Positions 1-8,408 of a DNA stretch of 64,000 nucleotides are shown piece after piece. The DNA is from a virus. Its lineage: Duplodnaviria > Caudoviricetes. Both the position numbers and the translations under genes were made by a program. Each line of letters begins with the position of its first letter. Position 1 is the stretch's first letter. The DNA lies in the IMG/VR virus record IMGVR_UViG_3300033121_001287, positions 20,525 to 84,524 of that record. One strand, written 5' to 3'. The notes below the pieces were generated by a model. That model had not been told where the DNA came from, ran no database searches, and saw nothing but the letters and a program-made list of their open reading frames with translations.

Positions 1-17
1 CCACGCTCGAAGACGCC

Positions 18-1106
18 GTGTGGGCTCGCGTCGAGTATCCCGATGGTGAGATTCTCACTCTGCGGTCCTTGGGCGGTCCCGGCAGCGGAAACTTCGGGCA
101 CAAGGGACGTCCCGGTGAGGTTGGTGGATCCGCATCGTCCGACGAGATCAACACAAAGCCCGCAAGCACGCCGGGAGATCTCACCAAGGGAAAGAACGAA
201 ACCCCTGAAATCGCGGCGATTCTCGCCAGACCGTCTTCGGCGTACCCCAAGGCTCGCAGCGGCCCGACGATGATGGCTGTGGATCACAGCAACGATCCTG
301 ATGCAGCGCATGATAGGCCGCGTGGGCTCGATACGCTGCAGGAACACACGCTGCCTGACGGATCAATCACTCCCGAACGCCGTGAACTGCACGAAGCCAT
401 CGTCGAGAAGATGCTCTACGGTCACAAACCCCCGTCGGATGCCCCGGTCGCGCATCTGATGGGCGGCGGCGGCGCGAGTGGTAAAAGCGTTATGCAGTCG
501 CAGTTGAGCTTGCCGGAAGATCAGGTTCACATCGACGTCGACATCATTCGTACTCATCTTCCGGAGTGGGACGAAGAACTCGCTCGCGCGAAGGCTGAAA
601 ATCGGAAGGCTGACAACTATCTCGGCAACTACACTCACGAAGAAGCGAGCGTGATTTCCAAGATGGTGATCGACCGGGCCTCGCGCGAGGGCATGAACCT
701 GATGGTGGATGGCGCGGGTGACACCAGCGTTGACAAGGTCGCGCAGAACGTTGCTCGTTACAAGGTGGGCGGCCAGAAGGTGATCGCCGACTACGTCACC
801 GTTGACTACGACCTCGCGTATCAGCGCATGCGTGACCGTGGTGACCGCACCGGACGTTACATTCCGGCTGCTCACCTACGCGCAGTGCATGCAGAGGTCG
901 CACGCGTCTTCCCGGCGGCCGTATCGCGCGGATTGTTCGACGAATTCACGCTGTGGGACACTTCCGCCTCGACGCCGGGCGTGAACGCGAAGCCCGCGAA
1001 GATTGCTTCTGGTCGTGGATCCGACATCACGATTCACGATCAGGAAGCATGGAAGAAGTTCCTCGAACGAGGCAAGGGCATCGCACCGCGTGCGGGCGAA
1101 ATCTAA
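18..1106 (+). CDS. Zeta-toxin-family P-loop kinase domain preceded by LRSL-GGPGSGNFGHKGRPGEVGGS motif; probably 5'-truncated
   Basis: Walker A GGGGASGKS, DVDIIRTHLP, THEEAS, LMVDG and RxRxxxTGRYIP are zeta-like motifs. The frame is open back to position 3, so the true start may lie outside the window. Confidence 0.8.
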   Translation: MWARVEYPDGEILTLRSLGGPGSGNFGHKGRPGEVGGSASSDEINTKPASTPGDLTKGKNETPEIAAILARPSSAYPKARSGPTMMAVDHSNDPDAAHDRPRGLDTLQEHTLPDGSITPERRELHEAIVEKMLYGHKPPSDAPVAHLMGGGGASGKSVMQSQLSLPEDQVHIDVDIIRTHLPEWDEELARAKAENRKADNYLGNYTHEEASVISKMVIDRASREGMNLMVDGAGDTSVDKVAQNVARYKVGGQKVIADYVTVDYDLAYQRMRDRGDRTGRYIPAAHLRAVHAEVARVFPAAVSRGLFDEFTLWDTSASTPGVNAKPAKIASGRGSDITIHDQEAWKKFLERGKGIAPRAGEI

Positions 1107-1117
1107 CCGAGAGGTGA

Positions 1118-1294
1118 ATGACAATGGTGAGTGGTGAAGCAGCATCGCGGATTCTCCTTGAGGTGATGTCCGGAGTTCTCGTGTCCACAAAGGACTCGCC
1201 GGAGGAAGCTGAGTACCGCAAGCAAGTCAAGGTCGAGGTTGATGAGATTCACGCCAAAGGCGGCACCGTGCAGTTGCCGAGGGAATGGCTGTGA
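1118..1294 (+). CDS. 58-aa small protein (not in ORF track), candidate antitoxin/immunity protein
   Basis: ATG at 1118 with GAGGTGA RBS; reads MTMVSGEAASRILLEVMSGVLVSTKDSPEEAEYRKQVKVEVDEIHAKGGTVQLPREWL*; overlaps the next gene start. Confidence 0.7.
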   Translation: MTMVSGEAASRILLEVMSGVLVSTKDSPEEAEYRKQVKVEVDEIHAKGGTVQLPREWL

Positions 1295-1875
1295 CACCGG
1301 AAGAACTTGTATCTGCTCCGGGTGATCCTATCGACGATGCTACCCGCGCGTTGATCGCGCAGATGCTCGACGAAGACGAGCAGCTACGAGCAGCCTACAG
1401 CCCTGATCAGGCTCGCGGAAGCGATGGTAAGTGGACGAAGGGCGGCGGCAGCGCCCCGTCGTCTGACTCCCACAAGTCGGCCCGCATCGCACGCGCGAAA
1501 TCCACGCATATTCCTTCGACGCGATCCTCGCAGAAGGCCGCTGCACGAAGTGAGAAGGTCGTCGCAAACGCTTTGCAAGGGAAGAGCACTGACGATCATG
1601 AGCCAATGGACGTCGTGGTTAACGAGAACGGTCGCGTTATCGGCGTGGAAGTGAAATCAATTCTCGCCGGGAAGAACGACAAGATTACCATGCACCCCGA
1701 TTCACTCGCGCGTAAGGTGGAGTGGGTTAAGGCGCACAAGGCTACCGGGCATACCATCGCGATTGATCTGCGCGGTGGGCAGCGCACGTTCTACTATCGA
1801 AAGGGCTTCGGCTCGTTTCGATTGTCATCCATGCAACGCGTCTCCGTCAAAGAGCTTCGCGAGTTGGTGCGATGA
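1285..1875 (+). CDS. PD-(D/E)xK restriction-endonuclease-fold protein with acidic leader and LRAA-YSPDQARGSDGKWT motif
   Basis: EPMDVVV...IGVEVKS fits the PD-(D/E)xK core; stop overlaps next start. Confidence 0.65.
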   Translation: MAVTPEELVSAPGDPIDDATRALIAQMLDEDEQLRAAYSPDQARGSDGKWTKGGGSAPSSDSHKSARIARAKSTHIPSTRSSQKAAARSEKVVANALQGKSTDDHEPMDVVVNENGRVIGVEVKSILAGKNDKITMHPDSLARKVEWVKAHKATGHTIAIDLRGGQRTFYYRKGFGSFRLSSMQRVSVKELRELVR

Positions 1876-3899
1876 GCTATTACCTGTTCGACTCACGGGG
1901 TTATGTCAGCGACGGCCCGTCGATTCAGGGATGGGAAGACTTCGTTGACTGGATCGCGTCCGAAACTGACATGGATGCGGTGGATCAGTTCATCAAAGAT
2001 GGCTCCGTTGAGGCGCTCGATGAGTTCATCGGTGAACTGGGCACCGTTAACGCACCGGGATCAGTTGAACGCACGCGCAGAATAGTGTTGGCCGCTGCGC
2101 GCAGGGCTCAGGACATCCTGATCCTGTCAAACGGTTTCGAGCACGGCGACCTGCGGGCGGCCGGAGGGGCTGGCAGCGGGAACTTCGGGCATGCGGGCAG
2201 GCCCGGTCAGGTGGGAGGATCGGCACCGGACGTCGCAGCTGAATCGTTCAACGCGGACTTGAGTCAGTTCGGCTTTGTCAATCCGATGAACGAGCGTGAG
2301 TTCGTGATCAACAACGAGGCCGCCGTCGAATTGAGCCGCACGTCGAACGGTATTCGTCTGCACGCGATTCGGTCATTTGCTCCGAAGAGTGGTGCCGGTA
2401 CTCGTGCGATGCAAGTGGTGATGAACGTCGCAGACAAGCACGGGTTTACCATTACTGGAACCGCGAAGCCTTTTGACACCGGTCAGAAGGGAACGCTCAA
2501 GTCTGCACCGCTCAAGCAGTGGTACAAGAAGCTCGGATTTGAAGTGGATAGCCGTGGTGACATGGTTCGGCGGCCACTTCGTACAGCCGGTGGTGCAGGG
2601 AGCGGGAACTTCGGGCATGCGGGAAGGCCGGGTCAGGTAGGTGGATCCTCGCCGGATGGCCGTGAAGCCATGACTCCGAAGGAATTACGACAGCAAGCTA
2701 TTGTGGCGCTCGTTTACAACGAGCTTGCTGCACCGGCGTACCATTCGAAGCAAGACTTCAGTAGAATGAGTCCGGAAGATCGCGTGAAGCTTCTGGATGT
2801 TTCTGGAAAGTTGATTGACAAAGAGCACATGCCTGTTCAGATCCGAACGGATCGGAACAACTACGATAAGAACGGCGTCGGCGCTTACGCTTATTCCGCG
2901 TTCAAGCGTGAATCTGAAGAGAAGAATTGGACTCCGCAGCAAGCCTTTGATGAGGGATTGAAGAGAGGATTGTTCGTCGTTGCGGAAGGTTCGATTAATG
3001 GATACGAACCGATGTCGTCTATCGGTGCTTCCGTATCCCGATTCAATATTCTCGAAGGCATGAACGCTGACGAACGGGACAGATTCGAAGAAGCTTACAT
3101 TCGCACGTTTGCCGATGGAAAGAACCGCAAGGAGCCTATCGACTCTCTTGAGTACCTTATCAAAGGCGGCTGGACTACAAATGAACTAGAGCGCTTTGCG
3201 GATCGCGTGCAGATGGCAGGTGGTAGTAGTTCAAAGCCATACGATGAACGCTCGAACATCGATTCCTTTGCTCGAACATTGGCGTTTTACTCAAAGGATT
3301 ACGATGAGTTTCGTGCGCAGATGTTCAGTGGTTGGGCCTCTGCGAGTAACACGGCCGTCGCGCTCACCACGCGTGGTGTTGCTGCAGAAGCATTTCCATT
3401 GAAGGCTGGTAAATTCTACGAGGCGCATCTTGAAGATTCGTCTTACGGATGGACCTTCAATGGTTACGATCCGCGTGTATCTTTTTCGCCGCGCGCCGTC
3501 GAGAACATGCGCCGTTTGAAGTCTGAAACGGAAGCCTTCTACAAAAAGCAATTGAAGACGGACGATCTGACTACGAAGCCCCTTGTAGCCATGAGGGCCA
3601 TTGGTGGTAAGATCGAAGCTTACACGCCCGCGTCTGTTGAATCGTGGACGACGGATGCTCGCACGGTGGATCGATTCGGGAAGATGATGGGAAAGAACAT
3701 TAAGCGTGATGGTTGGGGAAGCGATACGATTTACACCAGCCTTCAGACTGAAGTAACTTTTGACGATGTACTCTGGAGTTATAAGAGCGCCAAGGGTCAG
3801 CGCGGTTGGCCTGAGGAGAAGCAGCTCAAAGGGAAGAAGGAATTCGTATTGCTCGGTTCACGAGTGAAAAAGGTCGAGGCCAAGCATGTCTACCTTTGA
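1872..3899 (+). CDS. Polyvalent effector polyprotein: acidic leader / GNAT-like domain / large domain ending in ADP-ribosyltransferase-like fold
   Basis: Two copies of LR[AT]A-GGAGSGNFGHAGRPGQVGGS separate the domains. GNAT-like KSGAGTRAM...LKQWYKKLGF; ART-like VAMRAI / SVESWT / KKEFVL. Confidence 0.65.
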   Translation: MSYYLFDSRGYVSDGPSIQGWEDFVDWIASETDMDAVDQFIKDGSVEALDEFIGELGTVNAPGSVERTRRIVLAAARRAQDILILSNGFEHGDLRAAGGAGSGNFGHAGRPGQVGGSAPDVAAESFNADLSQFGFVNPMNEREFVINNEAAVELSRTSNGIRLHAIRSFAPKSGAGTRAMQVVMNVADKHGFTITGTAKPFDTGQKGTLKSAPLKQWYKKLGFEVDSRGDMVRRPLRTAGGAGSGNFGHAGRPGQVGGSSPDGREAMTPKELRQQAIVALVYNELAAPAYHSKQDFSRMSPEDRVKLLDVSGKLIDKEHMPVQIRTDRNNYDKNGVGAYAYSAFKRESEEKNWTPQQAFDEGLKRGLFVVAEGSINGYEPMSSIGASVSRFNILEGMNADERDRFEEAYIRTFADGKNRKEPIDSLEYLIKGGWTTNELERFADRVQMAGGSSSKPYDERSNIDSFARTLAFYSKDYDEFRAQMFSGWASASNTAVALTTRGVAAEAFPLKAGKFYEAHLEDSSYGWTFNGYDPRVSFSPRAVENMRRLKSETEAFYKKQLKTDDLTTKPLVAMRAIGGKIEAYTPASVESWTTDARTVDRFGKMMGKNIKRDGWGSDTIYTSLQTEVTFDDVLWSYKSAKGQRGWPEEKQLKGKKEFVLLGSRVKKVEAKHVYL

Positions 3900-4824
3900 G
3901 TTGCCCATCATCGTTGACGATCAGGAAGCACTTGACAAGCTACGCGCGGAAGGCAAGCTCGCGTGGGCTGGAGATGACGATGCGACCGTCATGCGCTCAC
4001 TCGGCCGCCGACTCCCTCCGAACGAAGTGCATGCTGCGGCCGACGCGCACGAGGCCAAGATGGTGGTGGCCCTGAACTACGCCTTCGCTGCTGCCCGCAA
4101 ATCGATTGACAAAGTTGCTCTCTTGAGCGCCTTGAAACTTGACTCTCGCCCGGCCAAGCGGCGGGCCTTGATCGCGGCCCTTCGGCCGGTCCCGGCCGCC
4201 TTAGAGGCGGCATTGGGCCGCACCGTGCCGCCCGTGTTGGAGCGTTGTTACGGGGCGGGCGGGGCGGCGGGGGTCACGAGGCTCGGGGCACAGGCGCGAA
4301 CGTTGGCGGCTATAGATGACGACGCGCTGCGTACCCTCCGTCGCGAATCGGCACCGGTGTTCGAGATGCAATTCGACGCCAAAAGCGCAGCAGCGATCAA
4401 GTGGGCGCGCAAGCATAGTGGCGAACTCGTACGGCAGATTACCAAGACGACTCGCAAGCGCATTGCGCAGGCCGTCGTACGCGCGTTGGATGGCGGAAGC
4501 CCGCGTGAACTCTACAAGGACATCTTGCAAGTGATCGGCGATAAGGAGCGAGCCGATCTCATTGCAAGGACCGAACTGATGGACGCAGCGAATTCCGGTC
4601 AGCGTGAGGCGTGGGCTCAGGCTGTCGAGGAAGGCTTGCTCACTGGATTGGAAATGCGAGAGTGGATCGCAACGGATGATCCTTCATTGTGCGATCACTG
4701 TGATCGTCTCGATGGGAAGCTCGCAGAGCTTGACGGTGATTACCCCGACGGCGGCGGCATCGGCCCACCACTGCATCCGCGTTGCCGATGCAGTGAAGGC
4801 ATCTCAGCGCGGAGGCGCTCATGA
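3886..4824 (+). CDS. MuF (Phage_Mu_F / SPP1 gp7-like) minor head protein
   Basis: RADLIARTE...REWIAT.D...CDHCDRLDG...PPLHPRCRC signature. Confidence 0.9.
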   Translation: MSTFELPIIVDDQEALDKLRAEGKLAWAGDDDATVMRSLGRRLPPNEVHAAADAHEAKMVVALNYAFAAARKSIDKVALLSALKLDSRPAKRRALIAALRPVPAALEAALGRTVPPVLERCYGAGGAAGVTRLGAQARTLAAIDDDALRTLRRESAPVFEMQFDAKSAAAIKWARKHSGELVRQITKTTRKRIAQAVVRALDGGSPRELYKDILQVIGDKERADLIARTELMDAANSGQREAWAQAVEEGLLTGLEMREWIATDDPSLCDHCDRLDGKLAELDGDYPDGGGIGPPLHPRCRCSEGISARRRS

Positions 4825-5006
4825 GTGAATCGACCCCCCGGAAGCCAGCAACGGCGGTAATCTCTGCCCGTATGCCTGCGGAGTTAGTGGATCGGGTCTA
4901 CCAGACCGCGCGAAGTAAGAAGCAGACCGCATCCGAGTTCGTGCATGAAGCAGTCATGCGGGCGATGTCTAGCAAAGATGTCAAGGACGGCGGAAACCGG
5001 GTGTAA
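4821..5006 (+). CDS. Ribbon-helix-helix (Arc/CopG-like) DNA-binding protein
   Basis: AVISARMPAELVDRVYQTARSKKQTASEFVHEAV has the beta-strand plus two helices pattern. Confidence 0.7.
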   Translation: MSESTPRKPATAVISARMPAELVDRVYQTARSKKQTASEFVHEAVMRAMSSKDVKDGGNRV

Positions 5007-5115: not shown

Positions 5116-6783
5116 ATGGCTGATCCCACTGCTCGCCTCCTGCATCTGTACGGTGCAACCGGACGTGCTCGAACAGAAATGTTCGAAGGACGCGAGCATC
5201 TTGTGGTCCCCGTTATCGCGCTCATGGAGGGTGTGATCCATGCGGTAAACGCAGAGAATCCAGAGTACGTGCCCGCACGCGCATTAGGGGTCGCCCCTCA
5301 ATCGTGGAACGGGCGACCCCTGATGCTTGGACACCCCTCGCGTAACGGGGTGCAGATCAGCGCCAACGACGCTCGCGTGCTTGAGTCGCAGTCATTCGGT
5401 CGCGTGTTCAATACTCGCTTTGACGGCCGCCGACTCCTCATGGACGCCTACATCGATCCTGCCAAGACTGAGCAGATCGGTGGTAGTGAGATGCTTCGCA
5501 GACTTCGTAACAATGAACTCTGCGAGGTGAGCGTCGGAGCCTTTGTCACGACCGACCCACAACCGGGTGAGTACAACGGCAAAAAGTATAAGGCCGTTTG
5601 GAACAGCATCTCGCCTGACCACTTGGCATTTCTTCCGCAGGGTCGCGGAGCATGCAGCGCCGAAATGGGCTGCGGTGCGAACCGCGCAGCGGCTGCGTTT
5701 ATCACTGCCGAAGGTTACCGAGAGGTGACTGAGGAAGAGTTGAAGACGATGGCTGAAGCTCGTGCCGAAGAAGATGCCGAACTCATCACATGGCAATCGA
5801 TGCGTGATCACTGCGACATCCTTGATCGGATTCGCGTTCGCATTCGACAGCTTGTGGACGAGTTGATCAGCGCCGAAGGCACCCACGTTGAAGGCCTCGA
5901 TGAATCGGACGAGACCGTCGTCGAGCGTGCAAGGCTTGAAGCCATCGGGCAACTGGCTTATTCGGCGCAGTCAGTGGTGTCTGGAATCAGCTCGCTGTGC
6001 ATCAAGTCCTTGAGTCCTCATGGTGAAAGCGTACCGTCTCCCGCGTACAACGCCATGCTGGCTGAGTTCGTGAAGGACGTGCCGATTGTCACTCTTGCCG
6101 AGAACGGGGTGAAGCTATGGGAAGCGGTTGCAAACGAAAGCGTTAAGGCGCTCAGCCTGAACAAGCCCGAACAGGAAGTCGAGAACAAGCAGGTGACTGC
6201 GGCAGGTGATGCACCGGCAGCAGCAGACAAGGTCGCGGGATCTGCCTGCGGCTGCAAAGGAGACAAGAACATGACGAAGGAACAGCGTGCGGAGATGATC
6301 GCAACGCTCATCGCCTGCAAGCACAGCGGGTTCACCGAAGGCGATCAGGCGATGCTCGACAACGCGACCGACGACCGTCTCGAAGCCTTCAAGGTGGCGA
6401 GCGAAGCGCGGATGCGGACGGAGACTGACCTCAAGGCAGCGGCGGCCAAGCCCCTGACCGAAGAGGAGTTCATGGCGAATGCGCCGGAGAGCCTGCGTTC
6501 GCTCATCGCGCGCCAGCAGCGGCAGGAGACGGCGTTCAAGGCCGAACTCGTCGCCGAGTTGAAGGCCGCGCAGGAAGAGTACTCGGAGACCGAACTCTCC
6601 GCGATGCCCATCGAGCAGCTGCAGCGCATGGCGCGCGTGGCCCGCATCGAGGTGCAGCCGGACTTCTCGGGTCGCGGACTGCCGCGCGTCCTCTCGTCGA
6701 AGAAGGAAGACGACGTCTACGCCAACCCGCCGGATCCGTACGCCGCCGACATCGAGCGCCGCCGGGCGGCTCAGGGCCGATAA
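5116..6783 (+). CDS. DUF2213-type prohead protease / scaffold fusion
   Basis: EGREHLVVPV..LMEGV, WNGRPLMLGHP, EVSVG, PDHLAFLPQGRGACS followed by a helical scaffold-like C-terminus. Start taken at ATG 5116 rather than 5053. Confidence 0.8.
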   Translation: MADPTARLLHLYGATGRARTEMFEGREHLVVPVIALMEGVIHAVNAENPEYVPARALGVAPQSWNGRPLMLGHPSRNGVQISANDARVLESQSFGRVFNTRFDGRRLLMDAYIDPAKTEQIGGSEMLRRLRNNELCEVSVGAFVTTDPQPGEYNGKKYKAVWNSISPDHLAFLPQGRGACSAEMGCGANRAAAAFITAEGYREVTEEELKTMAEARAEEDAELITWQSMRDHCDILDRIRVRIRQLVDELISAEGTHVEGLDESDETVVERARLEAIGQLAYSAQSVVSGISSLCIKSLSPHGESVPSPAYNAMLAEFVKDVPIVTLAENGVKLWEAVANESVKALSLNKPEQEVENKQVTAAGDAPAAADKVAGSACGCKGDKNMTKEQRAEMIATLIACKHSGFTEGDQAMLDNATDDRLEAFKVASEARMRTETDLKAAAAKPLTEEEFMANAPESLRSLIARQQRQETAFKAELVAELKAAQEEYSETELSAMPIEQLQRMARVARIEVQPDFSGRGLPRVLSSKKEDDVYANPPDPYAADIERRRAAQGR

Positions 6784-6828
6784 ACAGACGGCCCACATCG
6801 CCGTCCCGAAGGAGAGGAGTGAGAGGCA

Positions 6829-7269
6829 ATGGCAATCACACAGAAGGATCCGAACACGATCTGGCTCGGCGGCCCACGCACGGAGATCAACGATCTCGCA
6901 GCGTCGGAAGTCATCAAGCCGGGCCATCTGCTCGTGCGGTTCAATAACAACGGCGTCATCCGACTGAAGAAGCACGCCACGGCTGGCGGCGCTGCAGTCA
7001 AGATCGTCGCGACCGAACAGAGCATGCTCAACAAGGGCGTGGATGACACCTACGCCGCGAACGACCTCGTCGAGGCATCGGAGTTCGGTCCCGGCGCGTC
7101 GGCGTGGATGTTCATCAACTCGGGCCAGAACATCTCGGCCGGAGGTCTGCTCGAATCGGCCGGTGACGGCACGCTCCGCACGCTCGCCTCGGGTGTGGCG
7201 CTCTTCGCCGCGCTCGAAAACAAGAACGCCACCGTCTCGCCGACGCGCATCCGCGTCGAGGCCGTCTAA
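6829..7269 (+). CDS. Capsid decoration/cement protein
   Basis: Lies between scaffold and MCP; ASEVIKPGHL...GQNI..GGLLESAGDGTL pattern; strong RBS GGAGTGAGAGG. Confidence 0.65.
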   Translation: MAITQKDPNTIWLGGPRTEINDLAASEVIKPGHLLVRFNNNGVIRLKKHATAGGAAVKIVATEQSMLNKGVDDTYAANDLVEASEFGPGASAWMFINSGQNISAGGLLESAGDGTLRTLASGVALFAALENKNATVSPTRIRVEAV

Positions 7270-7305
7270 CCTAGACGCCTCGGCGTCATCAGGAGGATCC
7301 GCACC

Positions 7306-8352
7306 ATGTTCGACAACATGCGATTCACGGCAGCCGGTGGCAAGAGCCCCATCGCTGGCGCGTTGCTTCGTGCTCTCGCGGAAACAGGTGACCTGTCGGT
7401 CGCTTCGCTCCGCTCGCTGTCGCCACTCAGCGACAAGGCGCAGGTGATGGTTGACAAGGCCGTCGTCGAGGTGGGGCTGCAGCGCCTCTCCTTCGTCGCC
7501 GACCTGCTCGCCGAAGGCCTGACGTACCCCCTCACCGATCCGCTGTCGGTGACGCAGCTCGAATGGGAATCGGTCAATCAGGTCGGGCACGCGCAGCGCA
7601 CCATGAGCCCTTCGGCTCGCGGTGAGTTCCAGATGCCGAACCGGACGATCTACCGGCTTCCCATCTACCTCACGACTGACGACTTTTCGCTCGGCATCCG
7701 CACGCTCAAGATGTCGCAGCGCGTCGGTCAGCCCCTCGATACGTCGCTCATCAAGCAGGCCACTCGCCGGGTCAACGAGTCCATTGAGGACGCCGCGATC
7801 AACGGAGCCACCACGCTCGACGGTCAGCCGCTCTACGTCGGCGGCTACGCAGCGCCGGGCCTGCTCAACGCACCGAATGCCAACACCGTCTCGCTGACGG
7901 TTGATTGGACCGGCGCGAACACCATCGGCACGACCGGCCCCGGCATGGTCACCGACGTTCTCGCGATGATCGGCGCAGCGCAGGCCGACAAGAAGTACGG
8001 GCCGTACAACCTGTACGTCGGCACGAAGGCCGGGAACCTGATCGAAGGCGACTTCAAGGTCAACACCACCGACACGATCCGGCAGCGACTGGAGCGGATC
8101 GAGGTTGGCGGCCGTCGCCTGCAGATCAAGGTCACCGACATGTTCCCCGGTGCATCGACGGGCAATCAGTGCGCGCTCGTGCAGATGACGAACGACGTCG
8201 TCGAGATCGTCGATGGGCAGCGTCCGACGGTGATCCCGTGGACGAGCAACGACGGCTTCACGCTGTTCTGGCTCGTCATGGCCATCATGGTTCCGCGCTT
8301 CCGCTCGGACTACGACGGCAACAGCGGCGTGGTGCTCGGCGTCAAGTCGTAA
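7306..8352 (+). CDS. Major capsid protein, HK97 fold (encapsulin/Linocin-M18-like family)
   Basis: 348 aa; VDKAVVEVGLQRLSFVADLLAEGL, LPIYLTTDDFSLGIR, PLDTSLIKQATRRVNE, GLLNAP; highly biased codon usage; RBS AGGAGG. Confidence 0.85.
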   Translation: MFDNMRFTAAGGKSPIAGALLRALAETGDLSVASLRSLSPLSDKAQVMVDKAVVEVGLQRLSFVADLLAEGLTYPLTDPLSVTQLEWESVNQVGHAQRTMSPSARGEFQMPNRTIYRLPIYLTTDDFSLGIRTLKMSQRVGQPLDTSLIKQATRRVNESIEDAAINGATTLDGQPLYVGGYAAPGLLNAPNANTVSLTVDWTGANTIGTTGPGMVTDVLAMIGAAQADKKYGPYNLYVGTKAGNLIEGDFKVNTTDTIRQRLERIEVGGRRLQIKVTDMFPGASTGNQCALVQMTNDVVEIVDGQRPTVIPWTSNDGFTLFWLVMAIMVPRFRSDYDGNSGVVLGVKS

Positions 8353-8408
8353 GGATCCCCACACTACAAGAGATCGTGGGGGTCTCTACGGTAGGTGAAA
8401 TTGGATCG

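Follow-up and report, generated by a model that had tools for sequence, protein, structure and literature searches.

A conserved 20-residue tag follows candidate prohead-protease sites in putative head-cargo polyproteins of a tailed phage

The IMG/VR virus record IMGVR_UViG_3300033121_001287 (Duplodnaviria; Caudoviricetes; 84,524 bases, rated complete) carries, between its portal region and the genes for MuF, the prohead protease and the capsid protein, five genes (A to E) whose enzyme modules are headed by short conserved peptides. The stretch analysed, called the window below, comprises 64,000 nucleotides and corresponds to positions 20525-84524 of this record. The five genes are read here as encoding head-cargo polyproteins that would be cut by the prohead protease before each header (probability about 0.6). 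In the proposed model, five translationally coupled late genes would encode the polyproteins, and each module would be headed by [RK]-x-[LA] directly followed by a near-invariant tag of 20 residues; gene D has a second type of header in its place. The divergent DUF2213 prohead serine protease would most likely cut in the procapsid, between the L/A residue and the first Gly of the tag. Cleavage would separate the enzymes, each of them retaining the tag as its new N-terminus, and the freed enzymes would be ejected into the host along with the DNA. Several independent lines point to the cut, all of them comparative. Packaging is suggested by the gene context and by fusions of the tag to portal, MuF and protease proteins. 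Injection is suggested by likeness to T4 Alt and the T4 internal proteins and by the polyvalent-protein proposal of 2017.

The tag was searched for in six frames in the entire genome, including the part upstream of the window. Its consensus, GGxGSGNFGHxGRPGxxGGS, was found in 12 full copies and one truncated copy, all on the + strand and distributed over four open reading frames (ORFs A, B, C and E). The fifth gene (D) carries the second header, YSPDQARGSDGKW, instead of the 20-residue tag. The start of the window falls inside the 1210-amino-acid (aa) ORF C and the cassette extends about 6.5 kb farther upstream. The first-pass annotation of the window had placed sites and tags at 60-131, 1384 onward, 2151-2222 and 2577-2648, and all four positions were recovered. 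It had also counted four enzyme domains and described them as free-standing effectors. This was an undercount, only the last third of the cassette being visible in the window: there are about 12 modules and 13 tags instead of three, and the modules are not free-standing but joined in polyproteins as long as 1210 aa. When the tag was searched for as a degenerate DNA pattern, the window gave three sites and 100 shuffled versions gave none. Over all pairs of the 12 full tags of the genome, a mean of 14.7 of 60 bases differed and only 2 of 20 residues. Selection therefore acts on the tag peptide and not on the tag DNA, in keeping with the first-pass comparison of the two tags of gene E, which encode the same 20 residues with nine synonymous codon differences. 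Most of the sites before the tags in this phage read [RK]-x-[LA] and directly abut the tag.

The residue at position -1 of the tag was compared in 133 contigs and the head proteases were surveyed in 50 viral records. Identity at -1 was 0.82 within contigs and 0.22 between contigs, which is the largest within/between gap of all positions; positions -2 to -8 were nearly random, and the tag itself hardly varied. Contigs were classified by this residue as K, D, N, L/A or E, with a few H or Q. It was uniform in 106 of the 111 proteins with at least three tags. By Fisher tests, which ignore relatedness among records, class D (12 records) was associated with canonical DUF2213 (108-182 bits; 11 records, 0 of 38 others; 3e-10), class L/A (13 records) with the divergent DUF2213 found in this phage (20-38 bits; eight records, 1 of 37 others; 2e-5), and class K (13 records) with Peptidase_S78 or S78_2 (seven records, 0 of 37 others; 2e-5). 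Peptidase_S77, the family of T4 gp21, was present in one of the three records of class E, the sole S77 record of the 50. The seven records of class N, four of whose genomes are about complete, gave no match to any of six protease families. The relation was also seen within single proteins: three S78_2-fused proteins had K at 14 of 14 tags, and the eleven tag-bearing homologues of the protease of this phage had L or A at 11 of 11. Since the -1 residue follows the protease family that is encoded by, or fused in, the same phage, these comparisons support a site before the tag that behaves as a prohead-protease site. ClpP was considered as an alternative protease and was rejected, being present in one record only.

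The sites were compared with published cleavage sites. T4 gp21 cuts after Glu in L/I-x-E (PMC9026906). In the S77 record, the tags (GG) are preceded by AILE, SLFE, SLFE and LFFE, and the T4-like capsid protein reads ALSE|T just before its conserved core. The protease of HK97 removes the scaffolding domain of the capsid protein. This domain comprises 103 residues (PMC10275583). Residue 103 of the HK97 capsid protein is Lys (TFNK|SLGS), and the K-class sites read LFQK, QLFK, VWSK and LYEK. K and E before the tag thus match the published sites of the HK97-type and T4-type proteases. At the candidate propeptide site of the capsid protein of the present phage (Table 1), [LF]-R-x-[LA] is kept in five relatives (36-81% identity), even where an insertion precedes it.

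The protease encoded downstream of the cargo genes contains a divergent DUF2213 domain, a family barely characterised in the literature. Residues H52, S118 and H148, candidates for the catalytic Ser and His, were invariant in an alignment of 54 homologues. An AlphaFold 2 (AF2) model of this region had a predicted local distance difference test score (pLDDT) of 88. Its top Foldseek match was T4 gp21 (5jbl, probability 1.0, E 2e-4), followed by herpesvirus proteases. The domain thus models as a protease of the T4 gp21/herpesvirus (assemblin-type) fold.

Several observations weigh against cutting by the prohead protease before each header. Two of the 13 sites (EVL|GG and VTL|GG) have no R/K at P3. 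The L-R-x-[LA] motif was found 26 times across the proteome and alone is not specific; its use as a proteome-wide marker was dropped as too frequent on its own. Natural substrates such as the capsid protein carry no tag, and cleavage as such therefore does not require one. Part of the link between residue and protease could stem from common descent of the head modules, since the records of a class are related. Several L/A and K records had no detected protease, though most of these are fragments. The main exception to the rule is the Asn class: neither DUF2213, S78, S78_2, S77, ClpP nor S49 was found in Asn-class phages (G039, G040, G043 and G044; L021, L115, L037, L098 and L110), and a PHROG scan of the head region of one of these genomes identified no protease. 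Finally, no isolate phage with the tag was found by blastn with the tag DNA or by tblastn with the peptide, the latter probably limited by the low-complexity filter.

A rival reading is that the modules are released in another way, either through self-cleavage of the tag or through a peptidase of the zincin type, as proposed for polyvalent proteins. Asn-Gly and Asp-Gly bonds are chemically labile, and these are the bonds that the Asn class, devoid of a detected protease, and the Asp class would present. Some tag proteins elsewhere carry SprT, M48 or MPTase-PolyVal domains, and processing has been ascribed to MPTase domains by Iyer et al. (PMC5512222). However, no metallopeptidase domain was found by domain scans in the five cargo genes of this phage. 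Self-cleavage would leave unexplained why K, E or L/A is used according to the protease family, and it would not account for the match to the T4 and HK97 sites. Release by means other than the prohead protease is therefore judged very improbable.

Another reading gives the tag only the role of a flexible glycine-rich linker and recombination joint for module swapping, the polyproteins acting uncut. In ORF B (L010:7841-7934; genome 16841-16934), a truncated tag (GGPGSGNFGHAGRPG) is followed by SPDEYDDLEVL and then by a full tag, and PDEYDD is also present in the leader of this ORF. The truncated tag and the duplicated spacer look, from their sequences, like a recombination scar between tag cassettes, as a joint would leave. 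The same module families are moreover found behind different tags in different phages: zeta modules follow tags from the four site classes K, L/A, D and N, and homologues of the ADP-ribosyltransferase (ART)-fold module of gene E are headed in other phages by FNPDQxRDxxGRW, which belongs to the family of the gene D header. For these two reasons, modules that are swappable between site classes and header types, as the first-pass annotation had suggested, are supported by the comparison. A linker, however, does not require 13 invariant positions, N, H and R among them, across about 6,300 clusters. The unconserved DNA of the tag would be a poor recombination substrate. Single-domain proteins carry the tag after a leader of 13-60 aa, where there is nothing to link, and a linker would not have a -1 residue that follows the protease family. 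A mere linker or joint is thus considered improbable.

The role of the tag itself is the least certain step of the model. It is tentatively proposed, at less than even odds, that the tag is a docking handle shared by cargo proteins and bound on the S' side of gp21/herpesvirus-fold proteases. It would both recruit the cargo (loading) and present the bond to be cut. A role in protease docking is favoured because the tag always abuts the cut and because Foldseek places the DUF2213 model beside T4 gp21. Alternatively, the prohead protease would cut but the tag would work apart from it. It could tether each module, once cut, to an invariant partner such as the portal channel or packaged DNA, or it could direct loading into the capsid interior in the manner of encapsulin cargo peptides. 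The tag hardly varies among phages whose portal, capsid and protease sequences are very different, as would be expected if its partner were invariant, and each module has its own tag, though one per polyprotein would be enough for loading. The GRPG of the tag also resembles the GRP core of AT-hook DNA-binding motifs. On the other side, the tag abuts the cut site without a spacer, which fits substrate presentation, and the DUF2213 model adjoins T4 gp21 (S77). If the HK97-type S78 and S78_2 families share the gp21/herpesvirus protease fold, in line with their grouping in Pfam, the protease itself could be the conserved partner. A tag working apart from the protease is judged rather unlikely. A broader formulation, in which the tag is a universal, portable handle for cargo loading and processing in thousands of tailed phages, is regarded as doubtful. 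Here, the tag would dock on gp21/herpesvirus-fold proteases or on an invariant partner such as DNA, and procapsid entry, a cut at the phage-specific P1 residue and ejection would follow.

The distribution of the tag was examined with a profile built from 143 instances and searched against 50%-identity cluster representatives (E up to 0.001). It retrieved 6,299 representatives, almost all viral, with up to ten tags per protein. The exact DNA pattern of the tag was found in at least 114 stretches of the viral collection and in 29 stretches in 185,579 prokaryote genomes, mainly metagenome-assembled Clostridia. No model in Pfam, PHROGs or NCBIfam covers the tag. Related genes without the tag were found in cyanophage PSS2, Brevundimonas phage MaInes and Agathobaculum phage AB434P2. 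Pfam domains in the best 120 tag proteins were ART-PolyVal (18), ADPrib_exo_Tox (12), MuF (9), portal (9), Zeta (8), 2H phosphoesterase (6), PI3/PI4-kinase (4) and Peptidase_S78_2 (3), together with GNAT, NUDIX, DraT and others. The tag was thus fused to a portal, MuF or protease domain in 21 of these 120 proteins. MuF was present in 37 of the 50 viral records; the nearest tag was at a median distance of 2.4 kb, and 34 of these records had one no more than 10 kb away. Membership of the tag in head modules is supported at the level of gene order and fusions.

Two further arrangements were observed among tag-bearing loci. In relatives of this phage, in a 973-aa ORF (L062:5979-8897) and likewise in L121, the DUF2213 protease domain is flanked by tags at residues 70 and 450; the header is therefore not confined to effectors. 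In a Clostridia-type provirus of an isolate genome (L034:432-2456), the order is portal, tag and then a 140-aa module.

The head context bears on the possibility that the proteins are not virion cargo at all, and act as late cytoplasmic or lysis-released toxins in inter-bacterial competition. Zeta, ART and Fic domains are well known from toxins, the zeta module is followed by a small ORF, and MuF toxins have been proposed to act on competitors (Jamet et al., 2017; PMC5576092). Against this, the tags are fused elsewhere to portal, MuF and prohead-protease proteins, all of them head-internal, the sites match the capsid protease, and no secretion signal was seen. Toxins of this kind are given only a slim chance.

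The cargo of this phage comprises about 12 unrelated enzyme modules, among them a zeta kinase, Fic, Tpt1-like, GNAT-like and ART-fold modules. The Tpt1-like, Fic and Zeta domains are combined in ORF C, and the GNAT-like and ART-fold modules in ORF E. Of the four domains named by the first-pass annotation, the zeta-like kinase is firmly identified (70 bits, curated cut-off 22.3; Walker A motif GGGGASGKS at window 465), the GNAT-like and ART-like calls have no Pfam match, and the PD-(D/E)xK nuclease has weak matches only. In ORF C, Fic scored 26 bits, slightly over its cut-off, and the RNA 2'-phosphotransferase-like (Tpt1-like) module gave weak matches, as did ADPrib_exo_Tox in the last module of ORF B. 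The 118-aa module of ORF E had no Pfam match at E up to 5; in the ESM Atlas it neighbours GNAT clusters, at 0.94 and with 179-195 features in common. The AF2 model of the 416-aa module had a pLDDT of 89, and its residues 305-416 matched almost only ADP-ribosyltransferases, the best structural match being TreX (Z 7.3, root-mean-square deviation 2.6 over 89 residues). Nearly all of the top 50 structural matches of this module were ARTs, yet with Z-scores of just 4-7.3. Residues R316, S332-W-T334 and E398, which correspond to the R, S-x-T and E motifs, were conserved in 20 homologues. The domain of gene D matched two PD-(D/E)xK families, NOV_C (E 0.019) and SfsA (E 0.11), both under the cut-off, and contains the motif PMD...VEVK; on this basis it is weakly suggested to be PD-(D/E)xK-like.

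Virion-delivered multi-enzyme polyvalent proteins have been proposed previously (Iyer, Burroughs, Anand, de Souza and Aravind, 2017; PMC5512222), and the tag-bearing proteins are phage-type polyvalent proteins of this kind. As here, unrelated conflict enzymes (ART, zeta-like kinase, GNAT, 2H and nucleases) are joined in one polypeptide, the genes lie beside portal and MuF genes or are fused to them (fused, for the tag, in relatives), and packaging and injection are predicted. ART-PolyVal and MPTase-PolyVal domains are found on other tag-bearing proteins, whereas PF18760 (ART-PolyVal) is absent from the entire genome of this phage and its cargo genes yielded no peptidase. Processing was attributed in PMC5512222 to built-in zincin peptidases, whereas here each module is headed by a tag with a protease-matched residue; the words linker and glycine are not used in that paper. 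The T4 proteins IPI-III and Alt (PMC9026906) resemble the proposed cargo in that an N-terminal leader ends in a site for the prohead protease (gp21), the cargo is cut in the head and injected, and unrelated cargo can be attached. In T4, however, the targeting signal is the leader itself, 10 residues that precede the cut and are lost with it. In the present phage the leaders are unconserved, and the conserved element lies downstream of the putative cut and would stay on the cargo; it is also repeated within polyproteins and recurs in phages that have four different protease families.

MuF polymorphic toxins (Jamet et al., 2017; PMC5576092) likewise have variable toxin domains tied to the MuF head protein. 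In the present phage the cargo is in genes upstream of a separate MuF gene, and no tag or motif is described in PMC5576092. The ejection and inner-body proteins of phiKZ and SPN3US (PMC10052503, PMC7411985) are many head-internal proteins, cut at a short motif by a gp21-like protease and ejected. They differ in being separate proteins cut after S/A/G-x-E, and accounts of them mention neither a common header tag nor an array of enzymes joined in a polyprotein. A further comparison is offered by gp030 of cyanophage PSS2 (L125:4813-9312), a 'head morphogenesis' protein of 1500 aa. Its zeta-like domain is homologous (34% identity, E 4e-31), and it matches phrog_16619, whose coverage includes MuF and ART regions as well; it differs in being a single MuF fusion with the tag nowhere. 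The polyvalent-protein class is thus already known, as is the principle of head-cut cargo, from the T4 capsid-targeting sequence and the phiKZ ejection proteins. The literature searched yielded no description of the tag or of the protease-matched site in front of it.

If the rule linking residue and protease is true, a search for the tag and its preceding residue would yield a catalogue of the proteins injected by thousands of uncultured phages. The cleavage specificity of their capsid proteases, DUF2213 included, could be predicted as well, and the published view of polyvalent domains freed by built-in zinc peptidases would change. The loading of arbitrary enzymes into heads would become testable with one peptide. 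If the tag is indeed a handle, a general rule for predicting injected phage proteins would be obtained, as well as a route to load chosen proteins into heads.

The coordinates of the features are given in Table 1. The cargo array is flanked upstream by terminase and portal genes and downstream by the genes for MuF, protease, decoration protein and capsid protein, in agreement with the earlier placement of the cassette directly upstream of MuF and the head protease (the DUF2213 protein). Stops and starts of the cargo genes overlap or abut. ORFs A, B and C start with a leader of 24-31 aa that precedes the tag; these leaders are mutually dissimilar. The MuF protein has 312 aa and its MuF domain ends at residue 303, with no C-terminal toxin domain fused.

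Table 1. Features of the cargo genes and of the adjacent head genes (positions in the window unless marked as genome positions).
Feature	Position	Strand	Remarks
ORF A	genome 13950-15953	+	tag-bearing
ORF B	genome 15950-17998	+	tag-bearing
Polyprotein C	genome 17998-21630	+	1210 aa, 5 tags; C-terminal 367 aa at window 3..1106
LRSL, candidate prohead-protease site (P4-P1)	60..71	+	
Header tag GGPGSGNFGHKGRPGEVGGS	72..131	+	
Zeta-toxin-like P-loop kinase domain	429..917	+	end of C; Pfam PF06414, E 2e-19
58-aa ORF	1118..1294	+	between zeta module and gene D
Gene D	1285..1875	+	33-aa leader, LRAA site, second header type, domain at about 1582-1692
LRAA, candidate protease site	1384..1395	+	gene D
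Second header type YSPDQARGSDGKWTKGGGS	1396..1452	+	variant of the FNPDQxRDxxGRW header of other phages
Polyprotein E	1872..3899	+	675 aa: 93-aa N-terminal part, then 2 tagged modules
LRAA, candidate protease site	2151..2162	+	
Header tag GGAGSGNFGHAGRPGQVGGS	2163..2222	+	
GNAT-like module, 118 aa	2223..2576	+	ESM Atlas neighbours
LRTA, candidate protease site	2577..2588	+	
Header tag	2589..2648	+	peptide identical to 2163-2222; 9 synonymous differences
416-aa module	2649..3899	+	helical N-terminal part and C-terminal ART-fold core (about 3561-3896)
MuF/SPP1 gp7-type minor head protein	3886..4824	+	Pfam PF04233, E 4e-12; TIGR01641; separate gene, no tag
61-aa ribbon-helix-helix-like (CopG/HicB-like) ORF	4821..5006	+	weak Pfam and PHROG matches; between MuF and protease
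Prohead protease-scaffold protein, 576 aa	5053..6783	+	divergent DUF2213 domain at 5179-5802
Head decoration protein	6829..7269	+	phrog_766
Major capsid protein	7306..8352	+	DUF6260, phrog_771/264, phage relatives
LRSL in capsid protein (LRSL|SP, residues 35-39)	7408..7419	+	just before conserved core; candidate propeptide cleavage site

Two small ORFs are interspersed among these genes. No family match was obtained for the 58-aa ORF at 1118-1294 in Pfam and PHROG scans. Either this ORF or the 61-aa ORF at 4821-5006 could have a role as antidote or regulator.

The portal protein encoded upstream of the window (L009:4752-7346, genome coordinates) has 864 aa, with Phage_portal_3 at residues 57-415. 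The portal domain is followed by an acidic linker, a degenerate tag (DGRW-L-GGPGSGVVGH), a basic stretch and a 2H phosphoesterase/Acb1-like domain (E 4e-12 and 6e-6), and the protein ends in LRAA|M. By its sequence, this extension looks like a portal-borne cargo directed against the cyclic-oligonucleotide-based anti-phage signalling system (anti-CBASS type). Between the portal gene and the cargo array, where head genes are expected, two large Laminin_G_3 (concanavalin-like lectin) proteins are encoded (L010:299-2488 and L010:2489-4606). An antisense ORF of 749 aa was also noted on the minus strand at window 6115-8364, opposite the genes for the protease, the decoration protein and the capsid protein. 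Nothing supports it as a gene, and open frames of this type are frequent in GC-rich DNA.

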